DNA of 64,000 bases, taken from a bacterium (GTDB taxonomy: Bacteria; Patescibacteriota; Patescibacteriia; UBA9934; GWF2-40-263). Both the position numbers and the translations under genes were made by a program. Below are positions 2,499-60,225 of this stretch, piece by piece. The stretch is taken from positions 1,356-65,355 of the forward strand of contig JAGVQB010000045.1 in NCBI GenBank assembly GCA_020051955.1, given 5' to 3'. Every line of letters begins with the position of its first letter. Position 1 is the stretch's first letter. The notes under the pieces were generated by a model. It was not told where the DNA came from, searched no databases, and saw nothing but the letters and a program-made list of their open reading frames with translations.

Positions 2499-5400
2499 AT
2501 GTTTAAACGCCAAGATTCACTTAAATCGACTGACTTTGACTCCATTCGCCTGCGCCTTGCCTCTCCAGAGGCGATGCGTTCATGGTCTTTTGGTGAGGTG
2601 AGCAAGCCCGAGACGATAAACTATCGTACGCAGAAGCCTGAAAAGCAGGGCTTGTTTGCCGAGGAAATTTTTGGACCATCCAAAGATTGGGAATGTTACT
2701 GCGGAAAATATAAGAAGATACGTTACAAAGGAATCATCTGTGATAAGTGTGGCGTGGAAGTAACCCAGGCGGTTGTGCGACGCGAACGCATGGGGCACAT
2801 CGAACTCGCGGCTCCGATTACGCACATTTGGTTTTTGCGCGGAGTGCCATCCAAGATTGGAACTATCCTCGACCTCTCAATTCAAAACTTGGAGAAGATT
2901 ATTTATTTCGCGAGCTTCCTCGTAACCGACGTTAACGAAGTCGCGAAGGAACAGACCGTGGAGCAGGTGAATGCCGAACGCAAGAGCAAAGAGAAAATGA
3001 TCGAAGGTGAGTTCAAGCGCGACACTGGGCGTCTGGAACAAAAGTTTGGTGAAGATAAGAAAGCGATTGAGAAAGAAACAAAACGTCTTGTGGAGATTCG
3101 CGACACTAAACTCGCGGAGCTTGAGGAAGATTTTGACTCGGTCATTGAAGATCTCAAAAGCATGAAGGTAATGTCAATCATTTCCGAGCAGACGTATCAC
3201 GAGTGGTCGCTCAAGTACGGTCATGTGTTTGAGGCGAATATTGGGGCAGAGGCGGTTAAGGAGATGCTTTTGCGTATCAATGTGGATGAGACCATGAAAG
3301 TTTTGGGAGAAGAATTAAAGGGCGCGACCAAGACAAAGCATAATCGAATCTTGCGCCGTCTAAAATTGTTGAAGTCTTTTTCAATCAACCAGATCAAACC
3401 GTCATGGATGGTATTGGACGTGTTGCCAGTGATACCTCCAGACCTGCGTCCAATGGTGCCGCTTGATGGTGGGCGATTTGCAACATCCGATCTTAACGAT
3501 TTGTATCGTCGTGTCATCAACCGCAATAACCGACTGAAGCGGTTGTTCGAGCTTAGCGCTCCTGAAGTAATTTCTCGCAACGAGAAGCGTATGTTGCAAG
3601 AAGCCGTTGACTCGCTCATTGATAACAGCGCGCGTCACAGCAAGACCGTTATCGCGGCAACTGGAAAGAAGCGCCAGTTGAAGAGTTTGGCCGACCAGCT
3701 CAAAGGAAAGCAGGGACGTTTCCGACAGAACTTGTTGGGTAAGCGCATTGACTACTCTGGTCGCTCCGTGATTGTTGTGGGTCCGCACCTTCATTTGGAT
3801 CAGTGCGGTATTCCAAAAAAGATGGCGTTGGAACTTTTCAAGCCGTTTGTTATTTCAAAATTGATCGCGCGCGAATATGTTCACAACATACGCAGCGCTA
3901 ATCGGTTCATCGAAAGCGATCGTCCAGAGACGTGGGATATTTTGGAAGAGGTTACAAGCGACGCGTTTGTCCTTCTCAACCGCGCTCCAACTCTGCACCG
4001 TCTGGGTATCCAGGCGTTCCGTCCTCTCCTTATCGAGGGCAAGGCCATTCAAGTTCACCCACTTGTGTGTGATGCTTACAACGCGGACTTTGATGGCGAC
4101 CAGATGGCAGTACACGTTCCACTAACAGAAGAAGCTCGCGCAGAGGCGCGCGAATTGATGCTCGCGACCAAGAACTTGCTCAAGCCTTCCTTTGGAGGGC
4201 CTGTCGCGACGCCTGGAAAAGATATTGCCTGGGGTATCTTCTATCTGACAATGGAACCAACACCTCAACCAGAAAAACGCGAGGAGCTTCCAATTTTTGC
4301 TTCAGAGACTGACGCGCTCTACGCGGTTCAAAATGAGCGACTCTTACTGCGCGATTGGATTTTGGTGCGGCTGAAGAACGGCGACATAATCGTGACAACT
4401 CCTGGCCGCGTTCTTGTCAACCAACAGTTCCCAAAGGAGGTTCCATTCATGAACCAGACAATGGGCAAGAAGGAGCTGTCGGCGATCGTGAAATATTATT
4501 TGGAGTTACACGGATCTGAAAAGACCGCGGAGTTTCTCGATCGTTTGAAAGAGATTGGGTTCAAATATTCCACTCGCGCGGGGTACTCTTGGGGGATGGC
4601 GAACCTGCCAGATATTCCAGCCAAGAAAGCGTTGATCGAAGAAGGCGACACGCGCGTACGCGAGGTTGAAGATTATTTTGCCCAAGGGCTTCTCACTGGT
4701 TCCGAGCGTCACTCGTCAATCATCAAAGTCTGGAACGAGATTAAGGATCGTATCGCGGCCGAAGCGAAGAAAGTGCTTCCAAAAGATAACCCCGCCTATA
4801 CAATGATTGAATCAGGCGCACGTGGTTCATGGGGTCAGATGACGCAGATGGTTGGTATGAAGGGGCTTGTGGCAAACCCATCAGGAGACATTATCGAACT
4901 ACCAGTCAAATCATCTTTCAAAGAGGGCTATGACGTGTTGGAGTTTTTTATCTCAAGCCATGGAGTGCGCAAAGGTTTGACTGACACTGCTCTGCGTACC
5001 GCGAACGCTGGTTACCTCACGCGCCGTTTGGTTGATGTTGCGCAGGACGTGATTGTACGTGAGGATGATTGCGGGGATGACAAGGGTGTGGTGCTGACGC
5101 GCAAGGAATCTGAGGAGATTGGCGAGCCGCTGAACATTCGTATCCTTGGTCGCTACACACTCTCTGACATAAAAAAGCCAGGCGGTCGCAAAGTTATCGT
5201 TAAGGCAGGCGAGATGATTACAGAGGAACACATTCGTGATATTGAAGCGGCTGGTGTTCCGCTTGAAGAGGTCCACGTGCGATCTGTTATGACCTGTCAC
5301 TTGCGTCGCGGAGTGTGTCAGAAATGTTACGGTTATGATCTCGCGTACAACAAGCTGGTGAAACTTGGAACCTCGGTGGGAATTATGGCGGCTCAATCAA

Positions 5401-6518
5401 TTGGAGAGCCTGGAACACAGCTCACGATGCGCACATTCCACACGGGAGGTGTCGCTGGAAAAGATATCACACAAGGTCTGCCACGCGTTGAAGAATTGTT
5501 TGAGGCGCGCAATCCAAAACAGAAAGCGATAATGTCAGAGGTGTCTGGAAAGGCGAAAGTTGAAACAGCGTCTCGCGAGATCGTTCAGGCTGGAACTGGC
5601 AAGCAGATTTTTGACTCGCGCCCTGGGCAGAAAACCGTCGCGATTACATACGAAGGCGTTGAGGAAGAATTGTTCTCGTATGGAAAGGGTGGGGAAGCGG
5701 TAGTGAAAGATGGCGATAAAGTTAAGCTGGGCGCTGTACTGGCGCGCAAGAGCAACGGCAAGGAGGTGCTTGCTCCAGGCCCTGGAGTTGTCGCGCTCAA
5801 CAAGCCAGGATCCGTGACGCTCATCCGCGAGCAAACAAAAGTGCGTGAGTATATCATCCCGCCAGGGGTTACTCTTTACGTGAAGGATGGCGATGAAGTG
5901 GTTGCTGGTGACGCGCTGACAGACGGCAACCTCGATCTGCAAGTCCTGTTCAAGTTTAAGGGGCAGGACGCGGTGCAGAAATATCTTTCAAAGGAAATTC
6001 AGTTTATCTATTCAAGCCAAGGACAGAAACTTAACAACAAGCACATCGAGATAATCATTCGTCAGATGTTCTCGCGCGTGCGCGTGCTCGACCCTGGAGA
6101 CACTGATTTGTTGCCAGGCGAGATTATTGAGAAGGCGTCGTTTGAGGACGCCAATGATGCACTTGCGAAGGGAAGAAAGGCGGACGCGAAACAATTGTTC
6201 CTGGGTATCACGAAGATTTCGCTCTCAACCGATTCGTGGCTTTCAAGCGCGTCCTTCCAAGAGACGGCGCGCGTGCTCATTAACGCGGCTGTTACAGGAA
6301 AGATAGACAAGTTGGAAGGTTTGAAGGAAAACGTGATCATCGGTCGTTTGATCCCAGCGGGAACTGGTTTCCGCGGTATGGCAAAGGAACTCATAGGTGA
6401 CATGGAAGCAGTGCACGCGGCTCGTGAAACCAGTCGTGAACTGGCTGGCGAGGTCGATCAGGCGTTCGCGGAGAATCGCGTTGTGACAGCGGAGGCAAAA
6501 GAGAAGATAGAGGAATAA
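2499..6518 (+). CDS. rpoC: DNA-directed RNA polymerase subunit beta' (1339 aa)
   Basis: ATG at 2499 with GAGAGG upstream. Contains the zinc finger CYCGKYKKIRYKGIICDKCGVEV, NADFDGDQMAVHVP and the C-terminal clamp motifs. This is the classic rpoB-rpoC tandem. Confidence 0.97.
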   Translation: MFKRQDSLKSTDFDSIRLRLASPEAMRSWSFGEVSKPETINYRTQKPEKQGLFAEEIFGPSKDWECYCGKYKKIRYKGIICDKCGVEVTQAVVRRERMGHIELAAPITHIWFLRGVPSKIGTILDLSIQNLEKIIYFASFLVTDVNEVAKEQTVEQVNAERKSKEKMIEGEFKRDTGRLEQKFGEDKKAIEKETKRLVEIRDTKLAELEEDFDSVIEDLKSMKVMSIISEQTYHEWSLKYGHVFEANIGAEAVKEMLLRINVDETMKVLGEELKGATKTKHNRILRRLKLLKSFSINQIKPSWMVLDVLPVIPPDLRPMVPLDGGRFATSDLNDLYRRVINRNNRLKRLFELSAPEVISRNEKRMLQEAVDSLIDNSARHSKTVIAATGKKRQLKSLADQLKGKQGRFRQNLLGKRIDYSGRSVIVVGPHLHLDQCGIPKKMALELFKPFVISKLIAREYVHNIRSANRFIESDRPETWDILEEVTSDAFVLLNRAPTLHRLGIQAFRPLLIEGKAIQVHPLVCDAYNADFDGDQMAVHVPLTEEARAEARELMLATKNLLKPSFGGPVATPGKDIAWGIFYLTMEPTPQPEKREELPIFASETDALYAVQNERLLLRDWILVRLKNGDIIVTTPGRVLVNQQFPKEVPFMNQTMGKKELSAIVKYYLELHGSEKTAEFLDRLKEIGFKYSTRAGYSWGMANLPDIPAKKALIEEGDTRVREVEDYFAQGLLTGSERHSSIIKVWNEIKDRIAAEAKKVLPKDNPAYTMIESGARGSWGQMTQMVGMKGLVANPSGDIIELPVKSSFKEGYDVLEFFISSHGVRKGLTDTALRTANAGYLTRRLVDVAQDVIVREDDCGDDKGVVLTRKESEEIGEPLNIRILGRYTLSDIKKPGGRKVIVKAGEMITEEHIRDIEAAGVPLEEVHVRSVMTCHLRRGVCQKCYGYDLAYNKLVKLGTSVGIMAAQSIGEPGTQLTMRTFHTGGVAGKDITQGLPRVEELFEARNPKQKAIMSEVSGKAKVETASREIVQAGTGKQIFDSRPGQKTVAITYEGVEEELFSYGKGGEAVVKDGDKVKLGAVLARKSNGKEVLAPGPGVVALNKPGSVTLIREQTKVREYIIPPGVTLYVKDGDEVVAGDALTDGNLDLQVLFKFKGQDAVQKYLSKEIQFIYSSQGQKLNNKHIEIIIRQMFSRVRVLDPGDTDLLPGEIIEKASFEDANDALAKGRKADAKQLFLGITKISLSTDSWLSSASFQETARVLINAAVTGKIDKLEGLKENVIIGRLIPAGTGFRGMAKELIGDMEAVHAARETSRELAGEVDQAFAENRVVTAEAKEKIEE

Positions 6519-6525
6519 GGAATAA

Positions 6526-6557
6526 GAAAAACCGTCGGGGTTACCTCGGCGGTTTTT
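6526..6557 (+). terminator. rho-independent terminator of rpoC
   Basis: Sequence AAAAACCGTCGGGGTTACCTCGGCGGTTTTT: an 8 bp stem with G-U wobbles, then a T-run, 8 nt after the rpoC stop. Confidence 0.6.
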
Positions 6558-6653
6558 GGTATCGCCGGTTGACTTTTGGCCTGGAATATAATAAATTTGC
6601 GCACTTCGTATGTGTTGTGGTCGAATTGCCGCCATTCGTTCCACCAAAAAAAC

Positions 6654-6727
6654 ACACGACAATTATTCTCACGATCGACGAAATAATTGTCAGGGAGATT
6701 TTTGCGCGTATAAGTGACGATCGGGTT
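6654..6727. repeat. left copy of a ~73 bp direct repeat flanking the AbiE cassette; contains 10 bp inverted repeat GACAATTATT/AATAATTGTC
   Basis: ACACGACAATTATTCTCACGATCGACGAAATAATTGTCAGGGAGATTT... recurs at 8115-8188 with about 85 % identity. The ORF track shows the same peptide, IFLTIDEIIVREI, at both sites. Confidence 0.7.
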
Positions 6728-6733
6728 TTGTAT

Positions 6734-7429
6734 TTATTTTTCGCTTTCTAACCAAGCTTTTAATAAAAAGATTGTCTCCGTTCGAAGCTTTGCTCGCGCC
6801 CAGTCTTTCCGCGGTTCGTTCAGCATCTCTCCGAGACCATCGAGGATGTGACGATTATCCATTTTTTCCAAAAGCTCTGTGCACTTAGCTAAAACTTCTT
6901 TAAACGGCATCTTTGCACGGCTCTCAACTAATTTTCTATTTATTGGCCAATTATTCTTCGCGAAAAAATACACATCGTAAACATCACGGCTCGTTTTTCC
7001 GATCCGCTCATACATCGCCATTAGTTTGTTGGCGAACATGTCCTCCTTGACCATTACTTGCATTGAGATACCAAGCAAAGTTTTTAATTCATACTTAGAA
7101 CCAAAATCCCTGCGGTTAACCTCAATCTTGATATTTTGAGATTTCAAATCGTATGAGATAACCGTGACGAGGTTGAATCGTTTGATTCTTGAATCAACAA
7201 CCTTGCCATAACTCATAGCTATTTTTTGTATTTTCTCAAATACTTCCTGCTTTTTATTTTCGTTTAAAAGGTCAAGATCGATACCAACTGAATTACGGGT
7301 CAAGTCATAAAACATTAAGGCGGCTGTGCCACCCTTAAACCCCAAATAGGGAGACAGCGAGGTATCAGAAAAAATATCTTTCAAGATTTGTAATAAGATA
7401 TTTTTGTGTTTCGGATAGTCTAATGTCAT
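6734..7429 (-). CDS. abiEii: nucleotidyltransferase AbiEii/AbiGii-family toxin (type IV TA system), 231 aa
   Basis: LGFKGGTAALMFYDLTRNSVGIDLDL matches the GGTAL...DLD nucleotidyltransferase signature of DUF1814/AbiEii. Size fits, and it sits directly downstream of an AbiEi-like gene. Local GC is about 32 %. Confidence 0.8.
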   Translation of the reverse strand: MTLDYPKHKNILLQILKDIFSDTSLSPYLGFKGGTAALMFYDLTRNSVGIDLDLLNENKKQEVFEKIQKIAMSYGKVVDSRIKRFNLVTVISYDLKSQNIKIEVNRRDFGSKYELKTLLGISMQVMVKEDMFANKLMAMYERIGKTSRDVYDVYFFAKNNWPINRKLVESRAKMPFKEVLAKCTELLEKMDNRHILDGLGEMLNEPRKDWARAKLRTETIFLLKAWLESEK

Positions 7430-7434
7430 ATGGT

Positions 7435-8031
7435 TTAATTATTGTCTTTGTAGTGTTTAAAATATTCTGCAACTTTTTTCCCCATCCTCTTATTGCGATA
7501 TATCGGCAAAATTTCAAAAACCTTGTCCCAATCCAAAACGTCCAAGTGATCGAAGTGATAATCCTTGCTGATATATATCCGATCCAAAAACGCTCGCTCT
7601 TTTGTCGCAGTAGAAATATCGTTTGTATGTTCAATCCCGATTGTATTGCTCAAAACATAATCTTTCATTCTTATAAAAGATATTTTTTGTCCGTCTGCTT
7701 CAATTTCCCTGGTAACATAAGAAGCAACAAAAATATTTTCATAGTACTGGAAGTTTATTCCTGTCCGAGTTAATACCGTTTCAAAACTGATGTATGAAGG
7801 CGTGTAGATTCGAGTAGCTAACTCAAAACGATCGTAGTTATTATCTTTGGCATAAATGCCACGATGGACTCTGATCAATTTTCCTCTTTTTACGTAATTG
7901 CTCAATCTCACCCGGACCTTTGCTTCTCCTTGTTCGCCCCACAACAAAGCAATGTCTTTGGTAGAAAAGACAGTTTTGGGAGATCTTAACAAGGATTCGA
8001 TGTATTGACCTTTTGTGGGTTTATTATCCAT
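7435..8031 (-). CDS. abiEi: AbiEi-family antitoxin / transcriptional regulator (198 aa)
   Basis: The C-terminal half (RVHRGIYAKDN...YTPSYISFETVLTRTGI) resembles the AbiEi antitoxin domain. There is a 5 nt gap to abiEii on the same strand, the canonical AbiEi-AbiEii operon order. Confidence 0.72.
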   Translation of the reverse strand: MDNKPTKGQYIESLLRSPKTVFSTKDIALLWGEQGEAKVRVRLSNYVKRGKLIRVHRGIYAKDNNYDRFELATRIYTPSYISFETVLTRTGINFQYYENIFVASYVTREIEADGQKISFIRMKDYVLSNTIGIEHTNDISTATKERAFLDRIYISKDYHFDHLDVLDWDKVFEILPIYRNKRMGKKVAEYFKHYKDNN

Positions 8032-8114
8032 ATGTTTACTGTTAGTAACCTTAAAGCTTACTTGCAGTGCAATTATATGCGACTATTGGAAAATAACAAG
8101 GTGGTGGAGCATAT

Positions 8115-8188
8115 ACACGACAATTTTTCTCACGATCGACGAAATTATTGTCAGGGAGATTTCCGTGACACATAAGGGACGATCGGAC
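8115..8188. repeat. right copy of the ~73 bp direct repeat flanking the AbiE cassette
   Basis: ACACGACAATTTTTCTCACGATCGACGAAATTATTGTCAGGGAGATTTCC...GACGATCGG; see the left copy at 6654-6727. Confidence 0.7.
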
Positions 8189-8385
8189 CTTGTGTGTCCA
8201 GGACAGTAGAACATACTCAACGATTGAAATATCAGGAAGCCCTGGAGAGGTTGGGTTCTTTTTGTTATGATCTTGAGGCTATGGCACGTCATTCTCACTA
8301 TTAAATCTGGCACGCAGGATATCCAACAAACCGATGACGCGATTGAGGCATAGGATGACGTGGGCACGGTTTATATAAACGAACT

Positions 8386-8865
8386 ATGGAAGGACGAATA
8401 ATCATGGGACTGGATCCAGGGTATGGTCGAATGGGCTTTGGCGTGATTTTTGTTGAGGGAACGAAACTCGAGCTGGTTGACTATGGTGTGTCCACGACGC
8501 TTTCTGGGGACACGATTGAGAATCGGCTTCTAAGTATCGCCAACGATTTGCATGATTTGTTCGCGCATCATCAGCCAGACGTTGTCGCGATTGAAAAGTT
8601 TTTTTTCGGCAAGAGCGCTTCAACCGCGATGAACGTCGCGCAAGCTCGAGGTGTCGCGTTGCTCATGGCAGCGCAATCAGGCACGCCTGTTTTTGAGTTT
8701 ACCCCAGCGCAGGTCAAGAAGGCATTGACAGGGGATGGCACTGCTGGCAAGGCCGCGATGCAGAGGATGGTAAAGGAATTACTTCATCTTCCTCATGTTC
8801 CAAAACCAGATGACGCCTCTGATGCTATCGCTGTTGCTATAACGGCGAGTACTAAGAGGTGGTAA
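8386..8865 (+). CDS. ruvC: crossover junction endodeoxyribonuclease RuvC (Holliday junction resolvase)
   Basis: RIIMGLDPGYGRMGFGVI (N-terminal catalytic Asp), VAIEKFFFGKSASTAMNVAQARGV and DASDAIAVAI. The start may instead be the ATG at 8401. Confidence 0.9.
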   Translation: MEGRIIMGLDPGYGRMGFGVIFVEGTKLELVDYGVSTTLSGDTIENRLLSIANDLHDLFAHHQPDVVAIEKFFFGKSASTAMNVAQARGVALLMAAQSGTPVFEFTPAQVKKALTGDGTAGKAAMQRMVKELLHLPHVPKPDDASDAIAVAITASTKRW

Positions 8866-16152: not shown

Positions 16153-17661
16153 TCACAGGAGTTTTCCTTGCAATAGTCCGGATTTTTTGGCTTCTTCACT
16201 TAAAAACCTTGGGTGTAATTTGAATGCCACATTGGGGTCTTGTTTTTTTTCGGTAGTTCGTACTAACACTTCTTTTCCAATCAATTCTTCGAGCCTTGCG
16301 TTAGTAAAAGGTCTTGACCTACCAAGAAGTTTTTCGACCTCGCTTGGGCGCACCTCCCCCTTCTCTTCAATGAGCTCAAGAATATTGTAGTGGGCTTCTT
16401 CCAAGCCGAGTTTTGTCAACTCGTTTTCATTGATGAAAGGCTTCGGTTCGGTCTTAATTTTTTCAGGGACAAGGGTTGCACGAAATAACACGCGGAACGC
16501 ACCAGCTTCTTCAAGAAATTCCGGTTCAGGCAGCCGAACGTCCCGCATCACTCTACGCATTCTTTCGATACCTGAGCCGCGTTTTTCCATGAATCCTCCC
16601 ATGCGGACAAGTGCTTCCGCGATCGTTGCGTTTCGTGAGCGGGGAGCGAAGTCGCCCCGTATAACAATTTCAATTGTTAATGGTGGTATGAATCCGCCTG
16701 GATTGAGTATAGACACCGACGTGCCCCTGACTCGAAGATGAGTCTCAGCTAATGAGTCGCGATAGTCCCGGTGTACAACCGCATTGACCACGGCCTCTCT
16801 AAGAGCCTCAAGAGGGATGACAGGAGTGTTAATTCGTCGGAAGCCGGCAATACGCGCGGCGACCGGAATATGACGCCGGATGAAAGCTTCAACGGCCCGA
16901 AGTTGATCGAAGAGCGTTCCACCGAATGTCTGGAGGTCATCCCAATCGTTTTGTTCCTCGTTCATTTTCACATCGGCCTTTATAACGGCATGAGGCAGAA
17001 AGTTTTGCGGATTTTTACCAAACAATAAGATTCCAGCGATGGTTGGCACAAAATTTCCATCCGTTCTTTTACTGACGAATCCTTCCCTCGAAAGAAGAGT
17101 CATTAAATCTTTCGTAGAAAATTCGTTAAAGCTCGTCTTTTTTAGATAACCTTCCGCGGCGTTCAAATCAAGGTCTTCGACACTGGCCGCTTCGAGTAGC
17201 ATACGATCTTGCGGATCAGGGCTTCGATCACGACACATCTGGGCGATCTGGTCATCAGAGGCCTCGATATTGGAACTGCCAATGCGAACAAAAGGTCTTT
17301 CGTAGCCGCGGATTTTATATGGTGGGCGGGGACCCTTTGGACAACGAACGATTACGATTTTCTGGCCTTTGAATTCCGTTATCTCTACGCTAGGTGAAAC
17401 ATCCAAATCAGGAACGTTGCCCCTCAATTGTTGGAAAAAACTATGCTCCAATTGTTGCGGGTTTGGCACTCCAACAACCTCGCCTGTCTTATCACGAATG
17501 CCAAAAAGAATTGTTCCGCCCTTGGTATTGTAAAAAGCAGTCAACGATCGCATGACGTGCAATTTATGTTCTTGCGCTTCGGTAGCCGAGAGATCAGCCT
17601 TGAGTTCGATGTGGTCATTCTCAAGCCCAGCTATTGCTTCTTGGATTTCAATTTCTGTCAT
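16153..17661 (-). CDS. Schlafen/AlbA_2 (divergent AAA) domain protein with C-terminal HATPase_c_4-like domain; putative regulator
   Basis: 502 aa. The N-terminal IELKADL...GGTILFGIRDKTGEVVG pattern is typical of AlbA_2/divergent-AAA domains. The C-terminal half resembles the RecG-C-terminal-like ATPase domain fused to a wHTH. Confidence 0.7.
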   Translation of the reverse strand: MTEIEIQEAIAGLENDHIELKADLSATEAQEHKLHVMRSLTAFYNTKGGTILFGIRDKTGEVVGVPNPQQLEHSFFQQLRGNVPDLDVSPSVEITEFKGQKIVIVRCPKGPRPPYKIRGYERPFVRIGSSNIEASDDQIAQMCRDRSPDPQDRMLLEAASVEDLDLNAAEGYLKKTSFNEFSTKDLMTLLSREGFVSKRTDGNFVPTIAGILLFGKNPQNFLPHAVIKADVKMNEEQNDWDDLQTFGGTLFDQLRAVEAFIRRHIPVAARIAGFRRINTPVIPLEALREAVVNAVVHRDYRDSLAETHLRVRGTSVSILNPGGFIPPLTIEIVIRGDFAPRSRNATIAEALVRMGGFMEKRGSGIERMRRVMRDVRLPEPEFLEEAGAFRVLFRATLVPEKIKTEPKPFINENELTKLGLEEAHYNILELIEEKGEVRPSEVEKLLGRSRPFTNARLEELIGKEVLVRTTEKKQDPNVAFKLHPRFLSEEAKKSGLLQGKLL

Positions 17662-22601: not shown

Positions 22602-24505
<1,904 letters not shown>

Positions 24506-51072: not shown

Positions 51073-51142
51073 GTAGGGTTCGCGTGCGAAAGGCAAAACC
51101 ATTGCCAATCATTTGGAGGGGCATACAACCCAGGAGGAAGTC

Positions 51143-51862
51143 ATGGCAACCCCAGCCCGGTTCTACCGAACGCCACACGAGTTCACAATGGCGTTCATGG
51201 CCAATGTCGCAAAGACGTCGGCCACGGCAGTGACAGGGCAACAGAAGGGGCGCCATCGGCACCGTCCTGGGAAGCCCTACGCAGGAGTATCTGGTGATGA
51301 GCTCGCAGGGAAGGTGTTCGCGAACATGCGTTCTGTCGCACGCATGATTGCGACGGTTTCAGACCCAAACCGCCCACACACGGACTGGACAGTTCGGCAG
51401 TTCGTGGCACAGACAGTGCATCTCATACACAGGGGGATCAAGAACGCCAAGCGGATGAAGGCGCTGAGGACTCACCAAACAGCTCGTGGGTACGGTTGCT
51501 CTGCGGAGCGCGTACCAGAGTTGTGGGAGGAGTTCATTCGGGATCTGCAGATGAAGATGAAGCTGGACGAAGATGATCCGCAAGAGCTGTGCGCTTGGGT
51601 CGAATACCAAGTGCGCTTCAAGATCCATCCGTTGGCGGATGGGAGCGGAAGGTTGGCCACGGCGCTCGCGGCTTGGATCATGTTCCGGGCAGGGCGTGCG
51701 ATTCCCAACTACAGCTTCCTGCAGAGAAGCGAAATGCATGCCAAGCTCCGCGAGGGCGAAGTTGCGTTTCGTGAGTACTATCTGCGGGTGTGCTTTAGTG
51801 AGGGGGGTCCAAAGGAGCTGACCCCAACGGGAACAAACCCTCCTGACGAAGCAGCCGCCTGA
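51143..51862 (+). CDS. Fic/Doc-family protein (239 aa), GC-rich, stand-alone
   Basis: AGGAGG then ATG at 51143. IHPLADGSGRLATALAAWIM fits the Fic active-site motif HPFx(D/E)GNGR. GC is about 62 %. It has its own terminator at 51886-51930. Confidence 0.7.
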   Translation: MATPARFYRTPHEFTMAFMANVAKTSATAVTGQQKGRHRHRPGKPYAGVSGDELAGKVFANMRSVARMIATVSDPNRPHTDWTVRQFVAQTVHLIHRGIKNAKRMKALRTHQTARGYGCSAERVPELWEEFIRDLQMKMKLDEDDPQELCAWVEYQVRFKIHPLADGSGRLATALAAWIMFRAGRAIPNYSFLQRSEMHAKLREGEVAFREYYLRVCFSEGGPKELTPTGTNPPDEAAA

Positions 51863-59544: not shown

Positions 59545-60225
59545 ATGTCTCACCCACACAAATCAATGCTGGACGAGTTTCAGTACGCGATAAATCATTT
59601 TGCCCCCACGCTCCCGCCGGAGGTAAAGACCGAGGCGCAGGTTATCCACGATAAGCTTGAAGCCGATGAAACCGTTGATGAGGGCGCGCTCAAGAAGGCG
59701 TTTTATTCGATTGGTCGCAAGGAGTATCCACACAGGCACGCCTATGAAGAACTTACTCACACCGGTGCCGAGGCACTAATGAAACAGATGGTGATTGATC
59801 ACGTTGATGAGACAGTGCGCGGGTTTATCAAACCTCTTTTGAATGAGGGCGTGTCACTTGAAGAGCTTGTTGCGAGCGAAATTTTTGAGTCTAAGCTCGA
59901 TGCCAAACAACGCTATCAAGTTGAGGACGGAATTATGGTTGCCAAGAGCAAGCTCGCGGATAAATTAAAGGCTCACGTTGGCGCGCAGGCAACACAGTAT
60001 GAAGAGTTGGTTGGAAAGTGGACAGCGCAAGCGAATGAAATTGAAAAAGCAATAAACGATCTTGAAGTTTTCTCACAGGGCGGTGAAGAAAATCAACAGG
60101 CAGAAATTAAAAGCAAGGTCGCGCGTTTCCGCGAAGGGTTTTTGGTGACCGAGCCAGATCCAAGCCTTGAGGAGGTGAAGAAAGAGATCGAGTATTGGAG
60201 AGAAACGTTTGCGCAAGAGGAGTAG
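59545..60225 (+). CDS. hypothetical cytoplasmic protein (226 aa)
   Basis: Clean ORF with a helical, acidic composition. No family recognised. Confidence 0.5.
   Translation: MSHPHKSMLDEFQYAINHFAPTLPPEVKTEAQVIHDKLEADETVDEGALKKAFYSIGRKEYPHRHAYEELTHTGAEALMKQMVIDHVDETVRGFIKPLLNEGVSLEELVASEIFESKLDAKQRYQVEDGIMVAKSKLADKLKAHVGAQATQYEELVGKWTAQANEIEKAINDLEVFSQGGEENQQAEIKSKVARFREGFLVTEPDPSLEEVKKEIEYWRETFAQEE

Follow-up and report, generated by a model that had tools for sequence, protein, structure and literature searches.

We analyzed a 64-kb stretch of Patescibacteria DNA (64,000 nucleotides (nt) of contig JAGVQB010000045.1; hereafter, the window) in which a two-gene AbiE module, abiEi and abiEii, lies between rpoC and ruvC. 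The module is one copy of a horizontally mobile cassette, and in the window it is bracketed by two long direct repeats, R1 and R2. The explanation that we hold, with moderate confidence, is that an AbiE module was acquired horizontally, landed in a hotspot for toxin–antitoxin (TA) genes and ended up between two copies of a local sequence that was duplicated at insertion. The AbiE genes are a known system; the unexplained feature is that a cassette without a recombinase should have long, host-specific duplications at its flanks.

The AbiE cassette and its copies elsewhere

The open reading frame (ORF) list, Pfam and PADLOC agree on what the original prediction had read from the DNA alone: a minus-strand AbiEi–AbiEii module, with 5 nt between its genes, set between rpoC and ruvC. 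AbiEii matched Pfam PF08843 with 56.6 bits against a cutoff of 22.5 (4.6e-15) and the PADLOC AbiEii profile over its full length (4.3e-75), and its translation keeps the nucleotidyltransferase (NTase) motifs intact (KGGTA...DLDL, IKIEVN and RDVYDVYF, corresponding to GG...DxD, E and RDxYD). AbiEi also passed the Pfam check that had been proposed, with 25.6 bits for PF13338 (AbiEi_4) against a cutoff of 25 (1.3e-5), and matched the PADLOC AbiEi profile over its full length (2.2e-57); its match to NCBIfam TAA_AbiEi (1.4e-9) fell under that model's cutoff. At the level of sequence, the pair has the makeup of an AbiE system, that is, a predicted NTase toxin with a predicted winged helix-turn-helix (wHTH) antitoxin encoded directly upstream in what appears to be one operon. 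In Streptococcus agalactiae, the AbiE NTase toxin arrests growth, and AbiEi both neutralizes it and represses the operon (PMC3985639; bioRxiv 10.64898/2026.01.19.700257). AbiE was first described as a type IV TA system (Dy et al. 2014, PMC3985639), and a 2026 preprint has proposed a type VII classification (bioRxiv 10.64898/2026.01.19.700257). By homology, AbiEii of the window would be a growth-arresting nucleotidyltransferase that AbiEi neutralizes while repressing the operon; together, the two would stabilize the locus and could abort phage infection.

A search for AbiEii homologues returned 3,876 proteins at E ≤ 1e-10. The best 120 clusters share 81–95% amino-acid identity with AbiEii over its full length, and the names of the cluster sources, taken from their bins, span several classes of the Candidate Phyla Radiation (CPR) and other lineages; they include Falkowbacteria, Gracilibacteria, Peregrinibacteria, Pacebacteria, Buchananbacteria, Elusimicrobiales and Margulisiibacteriota. 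We compared the window with eight further independent genomic contexts (nine in all), including one between housekeeping genes. In these eight, the cassette DNA is 77–87% identical to that of the window over 1.35–1.39 kb. Its GC content is 0.31–0.42 in every context, with flanks at 0.33–0.52; in the window, GC is 0.34–0.37 within the cassette, and about 0.35–0.37 for the two genes, versus ~0.50 outside, so the predicted AT-richness holds. Near-identical copies across unrelated contexts and lineages, each keeping an AT-rich composition of its own, support the idea that the AbiE pair is a horizontally mobile cassette, as the original prediction had proposed. AbiEii had no relatives among viral contigs, and the cassette DNA had no match in plasmid and phage collections.

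Several copies have defense-type or mobile neighbors. One has a Dam-type methyltransferase on one side and a DpnI-like gene on the other (L015, 788–4773), one beside an EcoRI-type methylase and GmrSD (L039, 3399–5694), one beside a Cas12a-like fragment (L043, 3261–4535), and one ~800 nt from an RVT_1 reverse transcriptase (L007, 2254–3570). A small third ORF follows abiEii by ~5 nt in some contexts (L013, 2051–2103; L014, 785–1174; L039, 3202–3393); it has a conserved start (..AGGAAATCGCCA..), is a DUF7695 protein of 63 aa in L039, and is missing from the window. A Falkowbacteria variant (L010, identical to L048) carries a perfect 42-nt duplication within the abiEi region (4275–4316 and 4530–4571); its AbiEi was called at 141 aa instead of 204, and the antitoxin may be disrupted.

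Where the cassette ends was read from the same comparisons. Blastn homology to the eight contexts ended at window positions 8104, 8092 or 8080 on one side and 6734 or 6731 on the other. When the 130 nt upstream of abiEi were aligned across all nine contexts, conservation ran from the −35 box through TATAAT and a 33-nt dyad to the start codon; on the downstream side, similarity stopped at the abiEii stop codon. The mobile unit is a bare promoter-to-stop module of ~1.38 kb, without a recombinase, terminal inverted repeats or a shared att site. In the leader dyad, 83% of the cells are paired, whereas slid controls reach no more than 47%; at three pairs, both partners have changed. S. agalactiae AbiEi binds inverted repeats in the promoter region for negative autoregulation (PMC3985639), and because the leader dyad is located at that place, it is the likely AbiEi operator, and likelier to be so than the repeats.

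The repeats at the cassette ends

Direct repeats of ~85% identity had been predicted to bracket the cassette, and this was borne out: local alignment joined R1 and R2 into a single 79-column repeat with 67 of 79 positions identical (85%). The repeat finder placed 46 identities in the 48 positions of 6654–6701 and 8115–8162 (96%); beyond a 1-nt indel, 6710–6731 and 8172–8193 still match at 82%. A search with the 48-mer, allowing up to 3 mismatches, hit only R1 and R2 in the 64 kb and nothing in 100 shuffles. Searching with a profile built from both copies, all filters off, turned up nothing further in the window or across 54 kb of sequence from four relatives (next best E = 0.18). Within the window and these relatives, the repeat is thus not the common intergenic motif that would have undone the prediction.

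R1 and R2 start 0–10 nt outside the conserved cassette unit and, in one comparison, 0 and −1 nt from the ends of homology. Nothing similar to them was found in the flanks of any of the eight other contexts. Because the repeats lie outside the unit and are missing from the other copies, they are neither a cassette-borne att site nor the AbiEi operator. The original prediction had likened them to an att-site duplication or a cassette boundary. They do mark the boundaries, but their absence beside every other cassette copy, and the lack of an integrase in the cassette and among window ORFs of at least 150 aa, do not fit an att site belonging to the element. It had also set the left repeat immediately after the rpoC terminator, but R1 starts ~93 nt beyond it, past a promoter-like site.

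Each repeat had further been said to contain an inverted repeat around CGATCG. In the left copy, GACAATTATT-N14-AATAATTGTC does form a perfect stem. In the right copy, GACAATTTTT...AATTATTGTC carries two non-compensating substitutions, both of which weaken the stem. Both copies hold GACAATTNTT-N4-CGATCG-N4-AANNATTGTC. A conserved RNA fold was not apparent: three of the four folds were insignificant and only the plus strand of R2 was strong (z = −3.2). This strong plus-strand hairpin is formed by the right half of R2 with 8194–8201; it extends past the repeat and is not common to R1. Rfam matches in 6500–8420 were at chance level (E ≥ 0.64).

To look for repeats at other insertions, we compared the two flanks of the cassette with each other in all contexts with enough sequence and scored the result against shuffles. 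The window scored 53.5 against a shuffle maximum of 16, through its 79-nt repeat. A Falkowbacteria context (L009–12) scored 43.5 against 21.5, through an unrelated 50-nt unit whose copies are 90% identical. A third context (L036–38) was marginal (21 versus 17.5) and holds two terminator-like hairpins, and five others stayed within the shuffle range, with no repeat. The spacing of the repeats is 1456 in the Falkowbacteria context versus 1461 in the window. One copy of the Falkowbacteria unit, a hairpin with a T-run, immediately follows the upstream gene and the other follows abiEii; G-U changes leave the pairing intact in each. The flanking genes there (L009) are not a segmental duplication, since the two 129-aa proteins are unrelated. 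Contexts without a long repeat showed no consistent short target-site duplication.

The rpoC–ruvC gap in related genomes

Look-ups of the exact RuvC and AbiEi sequences of the window gave no record. The nearest relatives of RuvC are found in metagenome-assembled genomes of Patescibacteria/Uhrbacteria. Two of them (L001 and L002), with RuvC 81–82% identical to that of the window, and the closest relative found (L045, RuvC 90%) keep the rpoB–rpoC–ruvC order, in line with the conserved neighborhood that had been predicted. The contig of L001 (CAZELN010000005.1) is labeled uncultured Gammaproteobacteria; its RuvC (82%) and gene order fit the Patescibacteria relatives, and the label is probably mistaken.

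In place of AbiE, each of these relatives holds another gene pair in the gap. The pair of L001 and L002 has sub-threshold matches to ParD/RHH antitoxins (TIGR02606, 4e-7) and RelE/HigB-type toxins (PF05015, 1e-4), and L045 encodes HicB and HicA (3070–3586). All these pairs are co-oriented with ruvC and end 7–46 nt before it, and for this reason are probably co-transcribed with it, whereas the module of the window is inverted and bracketed by repeats. Blastn homology to the relatives' backbone runs out at ~6522, where rpoC stops, and begins again at 8381, 5 nt short of ruvC. Within the gap, nothing but the terminator and a promoter-like TTGACT occupies an equivalent position in the window and the relatives, and the window spacers hold no remnants of the relatives' ParD/RelE genes. 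Three TA families therefore occupy this gap across four related genomes, and because the gap holds other TA pairs in relatives, it behaves as a TA hotspot, or swap site, of Uhrbacteria-like genomes.

Two points of the original prediction could be checked here. An empty site, with rpoC followed by a single copy of the repeat, was not seen in relatives: their gaps are filled by other TA pairs, and the repeat unit has no copy at the L001, L002 or L045 loci. Conversely, none of these relatives carries the same two genes without repeats, since the resident pairs are ParD/RelE-like or HicB/HicA.

Features of the rpoC–ruvC locus and of the corresponding gap in two relatives (window coordinates unless a relative is named)
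Feature	Position	Strand	Description
rpoC	2499–6518	+	Left backbone, conserved (ORF list, blastn to L045/L001/L002, synteny)
rpoC intrinsic terminator	~6526–6562	+	G+C hairpin and T-run; same relative position in relatives
Promoter-like TTGACT-17-TAAATT	6569–6597	+	Matches the position of the relatives' TA/ruvC operon promoter (plus strand); putative function
R1, left direct repeat	6654–6731		78 nt; holds inverted repeat 6658–6691 with CGATCG core
Transferable unit	6732–8114	-	Promoter, leader dyad, abiEi, and abiEii to its stop codon; homology to eight other contexts
abiEii	6734–7429	-	231 aa; DUF1814 nucleotidyltransferase toxin (Pfam, PADLOC, translation, homologues)
abiEi	7435–8031	-	198 aa; antitoxin, probable wHTH autorepressor (Pfam, NCBIfam, PADLOC)
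Leader dyad CACTGCAAGTAAGCTTTAAGGTTACTAACAGTA	8037–8069	-	33 nt, conserved in nine contexts; candidate AbiEi operator
Cassette promoter TTGTTA-16-TATAAT	8072–8099	-	Cross-context conservation begins at this −35 box
R2, right direct repeat	8115–8193		79 nt; holds inverted repeat 8119–8152, with two mismatches
Spacer	8194–8380	+	187 nt, not common to relatives; promoter-like site 8243–8271 with extended −10
ruvC	8386–8865	+	Right backbone, conserved (Pfam 1.1e-46); 159 aa from 8386
rpoC–ruvC gap pair, L001	9510–9993	+	Proteins of 72–73 aa and 87 aa (L001 and L002)
rpoC–ruvC gap pair, L002	9499–9987	+	As for L001

The promoter-like site in the spacer could drive ruvC. The start of RuvC is uncertain: the ORF begins at 8386, the gene call in L045 corresponds to 8404 (153 aa), and the true start is possibly the ATG at 8404. 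The Joint Genome Institute (JGI) call of an identical RuvC, at 144 aa, would drop the conserved N-terminal GLDPG aspartate.

Elsewhere in the window, the 16S rRNA gene (22602–24505, minus strand) owes its length of 1904 nt to an insertion of 412 nt that follows model position ~80, with no ORF of at least 70 aa inside, as is typical of rRNA insertions in the CPR. A Schlafen/AlbA_2 and HATPase_c_4 protein with PADLOC similarity to pAgo-associated proteins is encoded at 16153–17661 (minus strand), and an accessory gene at 51113–51862 (plus strand) encodes a Fic-domain protein.

Origin of the repeats and comparison with known systems

We propose that the AbiE module (6732–8114) came in by horizontal transfer and entered the rpoC–ruvC gap of an Uhrbacteria-like Patescibacteria genome in reverse orientation. 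The insertion would have duplicated local sequence, foreign to the cassette, and so produced the two ~79-nt repeats. The duplication may have arisen through repair of a staggered or hairpin-associated break, or through a single crossover by a circular intermediate that carried one copy; in either case, no cassette gene would encode the function that made it. On the minus strand, the hairpin of the downstream copy, R1, is followed by GUGUGUUUUUUUGG (6653–6640), and R1 with this adjacent U-run may terminate abiEii, although it is a weak candidate. Two independent insertions with long, host-specific, hairpin-containing duplications of near-equal geometry, in the window and in Falkowbacteria, are not a coincidence. 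Five other contexts lack any scar, which speaks for a non-programmed process and against a dedicated transposition machine.

Several observations weigh against this account. First, a single-copy, unoccupied site was found neither for the window, through RuvC relatives in genomes and a protein collection (where the gaps hold other TA pairs), nor for the Falkowbacteria locus, where all 24 of the 24 contigs with the exact flanking DUF3307 protein carry the cassette; the unit is therefore of presumed host origin. The repeat also sits in a segment that varies among relatives (6600–8380) and possibly arrived with an earlier occupant. Second, a long repeat and a short target duplication are both missing from five of the eight other contexts, so the duplication is not an obligatory signature. 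Third, the differences between R1 and R2 concentrate outside the 48-nt inverted-repeat part (96% identity there versus ~70% elsewhere; p ~0.005). Neutral decay of a duplication does not predict such clustering, which hints at constraint or gene conversion. Finally, the R1 hairpin is weak and a terminator scan made no call there, the window arrangement rests on one contig, and at least one of the lineage labels (L001) looks wrong.

A specific form of the duplication would be a Campbell-type event, in which circular conspecific DNA carrying the cassette and one unit entered by a single RecA-dependent crossover at a resident unit. Such an event requires no recombinase, suits a repeat that is host-specific and not cassette-borne, and agrees with the scars, which vary among contexts as expected of a non-programmed process. 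A length of 79 nt is enough for homologous recombination, and the 15% divergence of the copies could predate the insertion if donor and recipient differed. However, this route requires an earlier, unexplained insertion beside the unit in the donor. Searches of viral contigs and of plasmid and phage collections gave neither a circular form nor a plasmid or phage carrier, and no conspecific single-copy genome turned up. We regard this sub-mechanism as possible but unlikely.

A more general form of the duplication reading, to which we give little credence, is that the recombinase-less promoter-to-stop module spreads across phyla by inserting at hairpin- or terminator-bearing intergenic DNA and duplicating 50–80 bp of target, by a mechanism that has not been described. 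If this were true, the module would gain a terminator while the upstream gene kept its own, and long, variable, host-specific repeats would be its signature. Only young insertions would still show the repeats, and their absence from five of the eight contexts would be explained in this way.

The repeats could instead be attL and attR, with a tyrosine or serine recombinase acting in trans having joined a cassette att site to a host site and the CGATCG dyad serving as the binding or crossover site. The repeats do stand exactly at the cassette boundaries, their dyad has a palindromic core, and the 48-nt dyad part is better conserved than the remainder. Yet an element-borne att should travel with the element, and none of the eight other contexts is similar outside the promoter-to-stop unit; the Falkowbacteria repeat is unrelated in sequence. 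The cassette encodes neither an integrase nor a transposase, and none turned up among the window ORFs of 150 aa or more, apart from a 226-aa ORF with a sub-threshold match to rve_3 (integrase core), 51 kb away (59545–60225, plus strand). The 14-nt spacer between the arms exceeds that of Xer/tyrosine-recombinase core sites, and attC cores are lacking (see below). We consider this explanation improbable.

Known element types were examined separately. As integron attC sites, the repeats fail: R''(RYYYAAC)/R'(GTTRRRY) cores occur on neither strand of either copy, there are only two copies, and no IntI was found. For an insertion sequence, transposon or miniature inverted-repeat transposable element (MITE), the terminal-inverted-repeat score was 7.0 against a shuffle mean of 7.8, and there is no transposase. 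A fixed-length target duplication is at odds with flanking repeats of 79 nt in the window and 50 nt in L009. An integrase-type island would have direct repeats at both boundaries, as here, but the recombinase and an element-carried att are missing.

The suggestion that R1 and R2 are selected regulatory elements, either sites for AbiEi or a host factor (acting, for example, by looping) or duplicated insulating terminators, appears to us just as improbable as att sites. It would agree with the high conservation of the dyad-bearing 48 nt, with the terminator-like Falkowbacteria repeat, whose pairing is kept through G-U changes, and with the possibility that the left copy and its U-run terminate abiEii. 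But conservation of the cassette does not extend to the repeat sequence, whereas it does include a different dyad, inside the cassette, at the position of the S. agalactiae operator (PMC3985639). Moreover, both mismatches of the right copy weaken the stem, there is no significant or shared RNA fold, and a regulatory role would leave the origin of the two copies unexplained.

Last, the unit might be a dispersed intergenic repeat (a REP- or MITE-like or attC-like array element) with the cassette merely lying between two copies, which we find hardly credible: a metagenome palindrome family does share the arms and the CGATCG core, and CGATCG is over-represented in the window (41 occurrences versus ~15 expected from base composition, 4 of the 41 within R1 and R2), but the unit occurs just twice in 64 kb, is missing from the 54 kb of the relatives, lacks attC cores and abuts the cassette ends exactly, and the metagenome matches resemble it only at positions forced by the search pattern.

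Those matches came from a search with the dyad pattern, which found nothing in viral contigs and, in metagenomes, long palindromes in ten unrelated, mostly GC-rich contigs. They had nothing in common with R1 and R2 beyond the forced positions and were rejected as copies of the unit or empty sites. The palindromes themselves (L026–L035) form a family of 36–40 nt, near-perfect (CGCGACAATTaTTGAnnCGATCGnnTCAAtAATTGTCGCG) and intergenic, whose inner positions covary (for example, L030 631–664, L034 1978–2011 and L026 1957–1990); one member is found upstream of a dinB-like gene, another where a TetR-like gene starts.

The tiny genomes of Patescibacteria have few accessory genes, TA and abortive-infection modules among them, and how these modules are acquired and exchanged is poorly documented. 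Here, very different uncultured lineages exchange one AbiE module as a bare promoter-to-stop unit of 1.38 kb, the rpoC–ruvC gap of Uhrbacteria-like genomes is a swap site for at least three TA families, and some insertions bear long host-specific flanking duplications that known mobility machinery does not explain. If these duplications are a regular signature of insertion, they would point to an unrecognized route of gene-cassette acquisition; if not, the locus is an ordinary horizontally acquired TA islet. Our literature search turned up no account of either an AbiE cassette flanked by repeats or an rpoC–ruvC hotspot.

How does the locus compare with known mobile DNA? As in att-flanked genomic islets, direct repeats bound a stretch of foreign DNA that lies in a conserved neighborhood and differs from it in composition. 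Unlike such islets, the element lacks an integrase, does not itself carry the repeat, involves no tRNA or tmRNA gene and measures only 1.38 kb. With the TA cassettes of chromosomal integrons, it shares a compact, promoter-poor build, a TA cargo and dyad-bearing repeats on both sides; however, the module has its own promoter, IntI, R''/R' cores and an array are missing, and the repeats differ wholly between hosts.

Variable TA and defense hotspots between core genes include the Neisseria "minimal mobile elements" and the core defense hotspots of Pseudomonas and Escherichia coli. The rpoC–ruvC gap resembles them in that a single gap between core genes holds three TA families, which could be exchanged by homologous recombination in the flanking genes. 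It differs in its lineage, the CPR, and in a sample of four genomes.

The AbiE systems of S. agalactiae and Lactococcus lactis (PMC3985639) are the closest known models. Their hosts differ from those of the present cassette, which belong to the CPR and other uncultured lineages and in which the system is known from its sequence; the window proteins are distant from the models (Pfam 4.6e-15 and 1.3e-5). The candidate operator also differs: it is one 33-nt dyad downstream of the −10 box, whereas the model systems have two inverted repeats across the −35 box, a layout that the window cassette lacks. In other respects, the systems agree. Both are bicistronic with the antitoxin gene first, both pair a COG5340-type wHTH antitoxin with a DUF1814 NTase toxin whose motifs are intact, and both combine a promoter-proximal dyad, a candidate autoregulatory operator in the window, with an association with mobile DNA.

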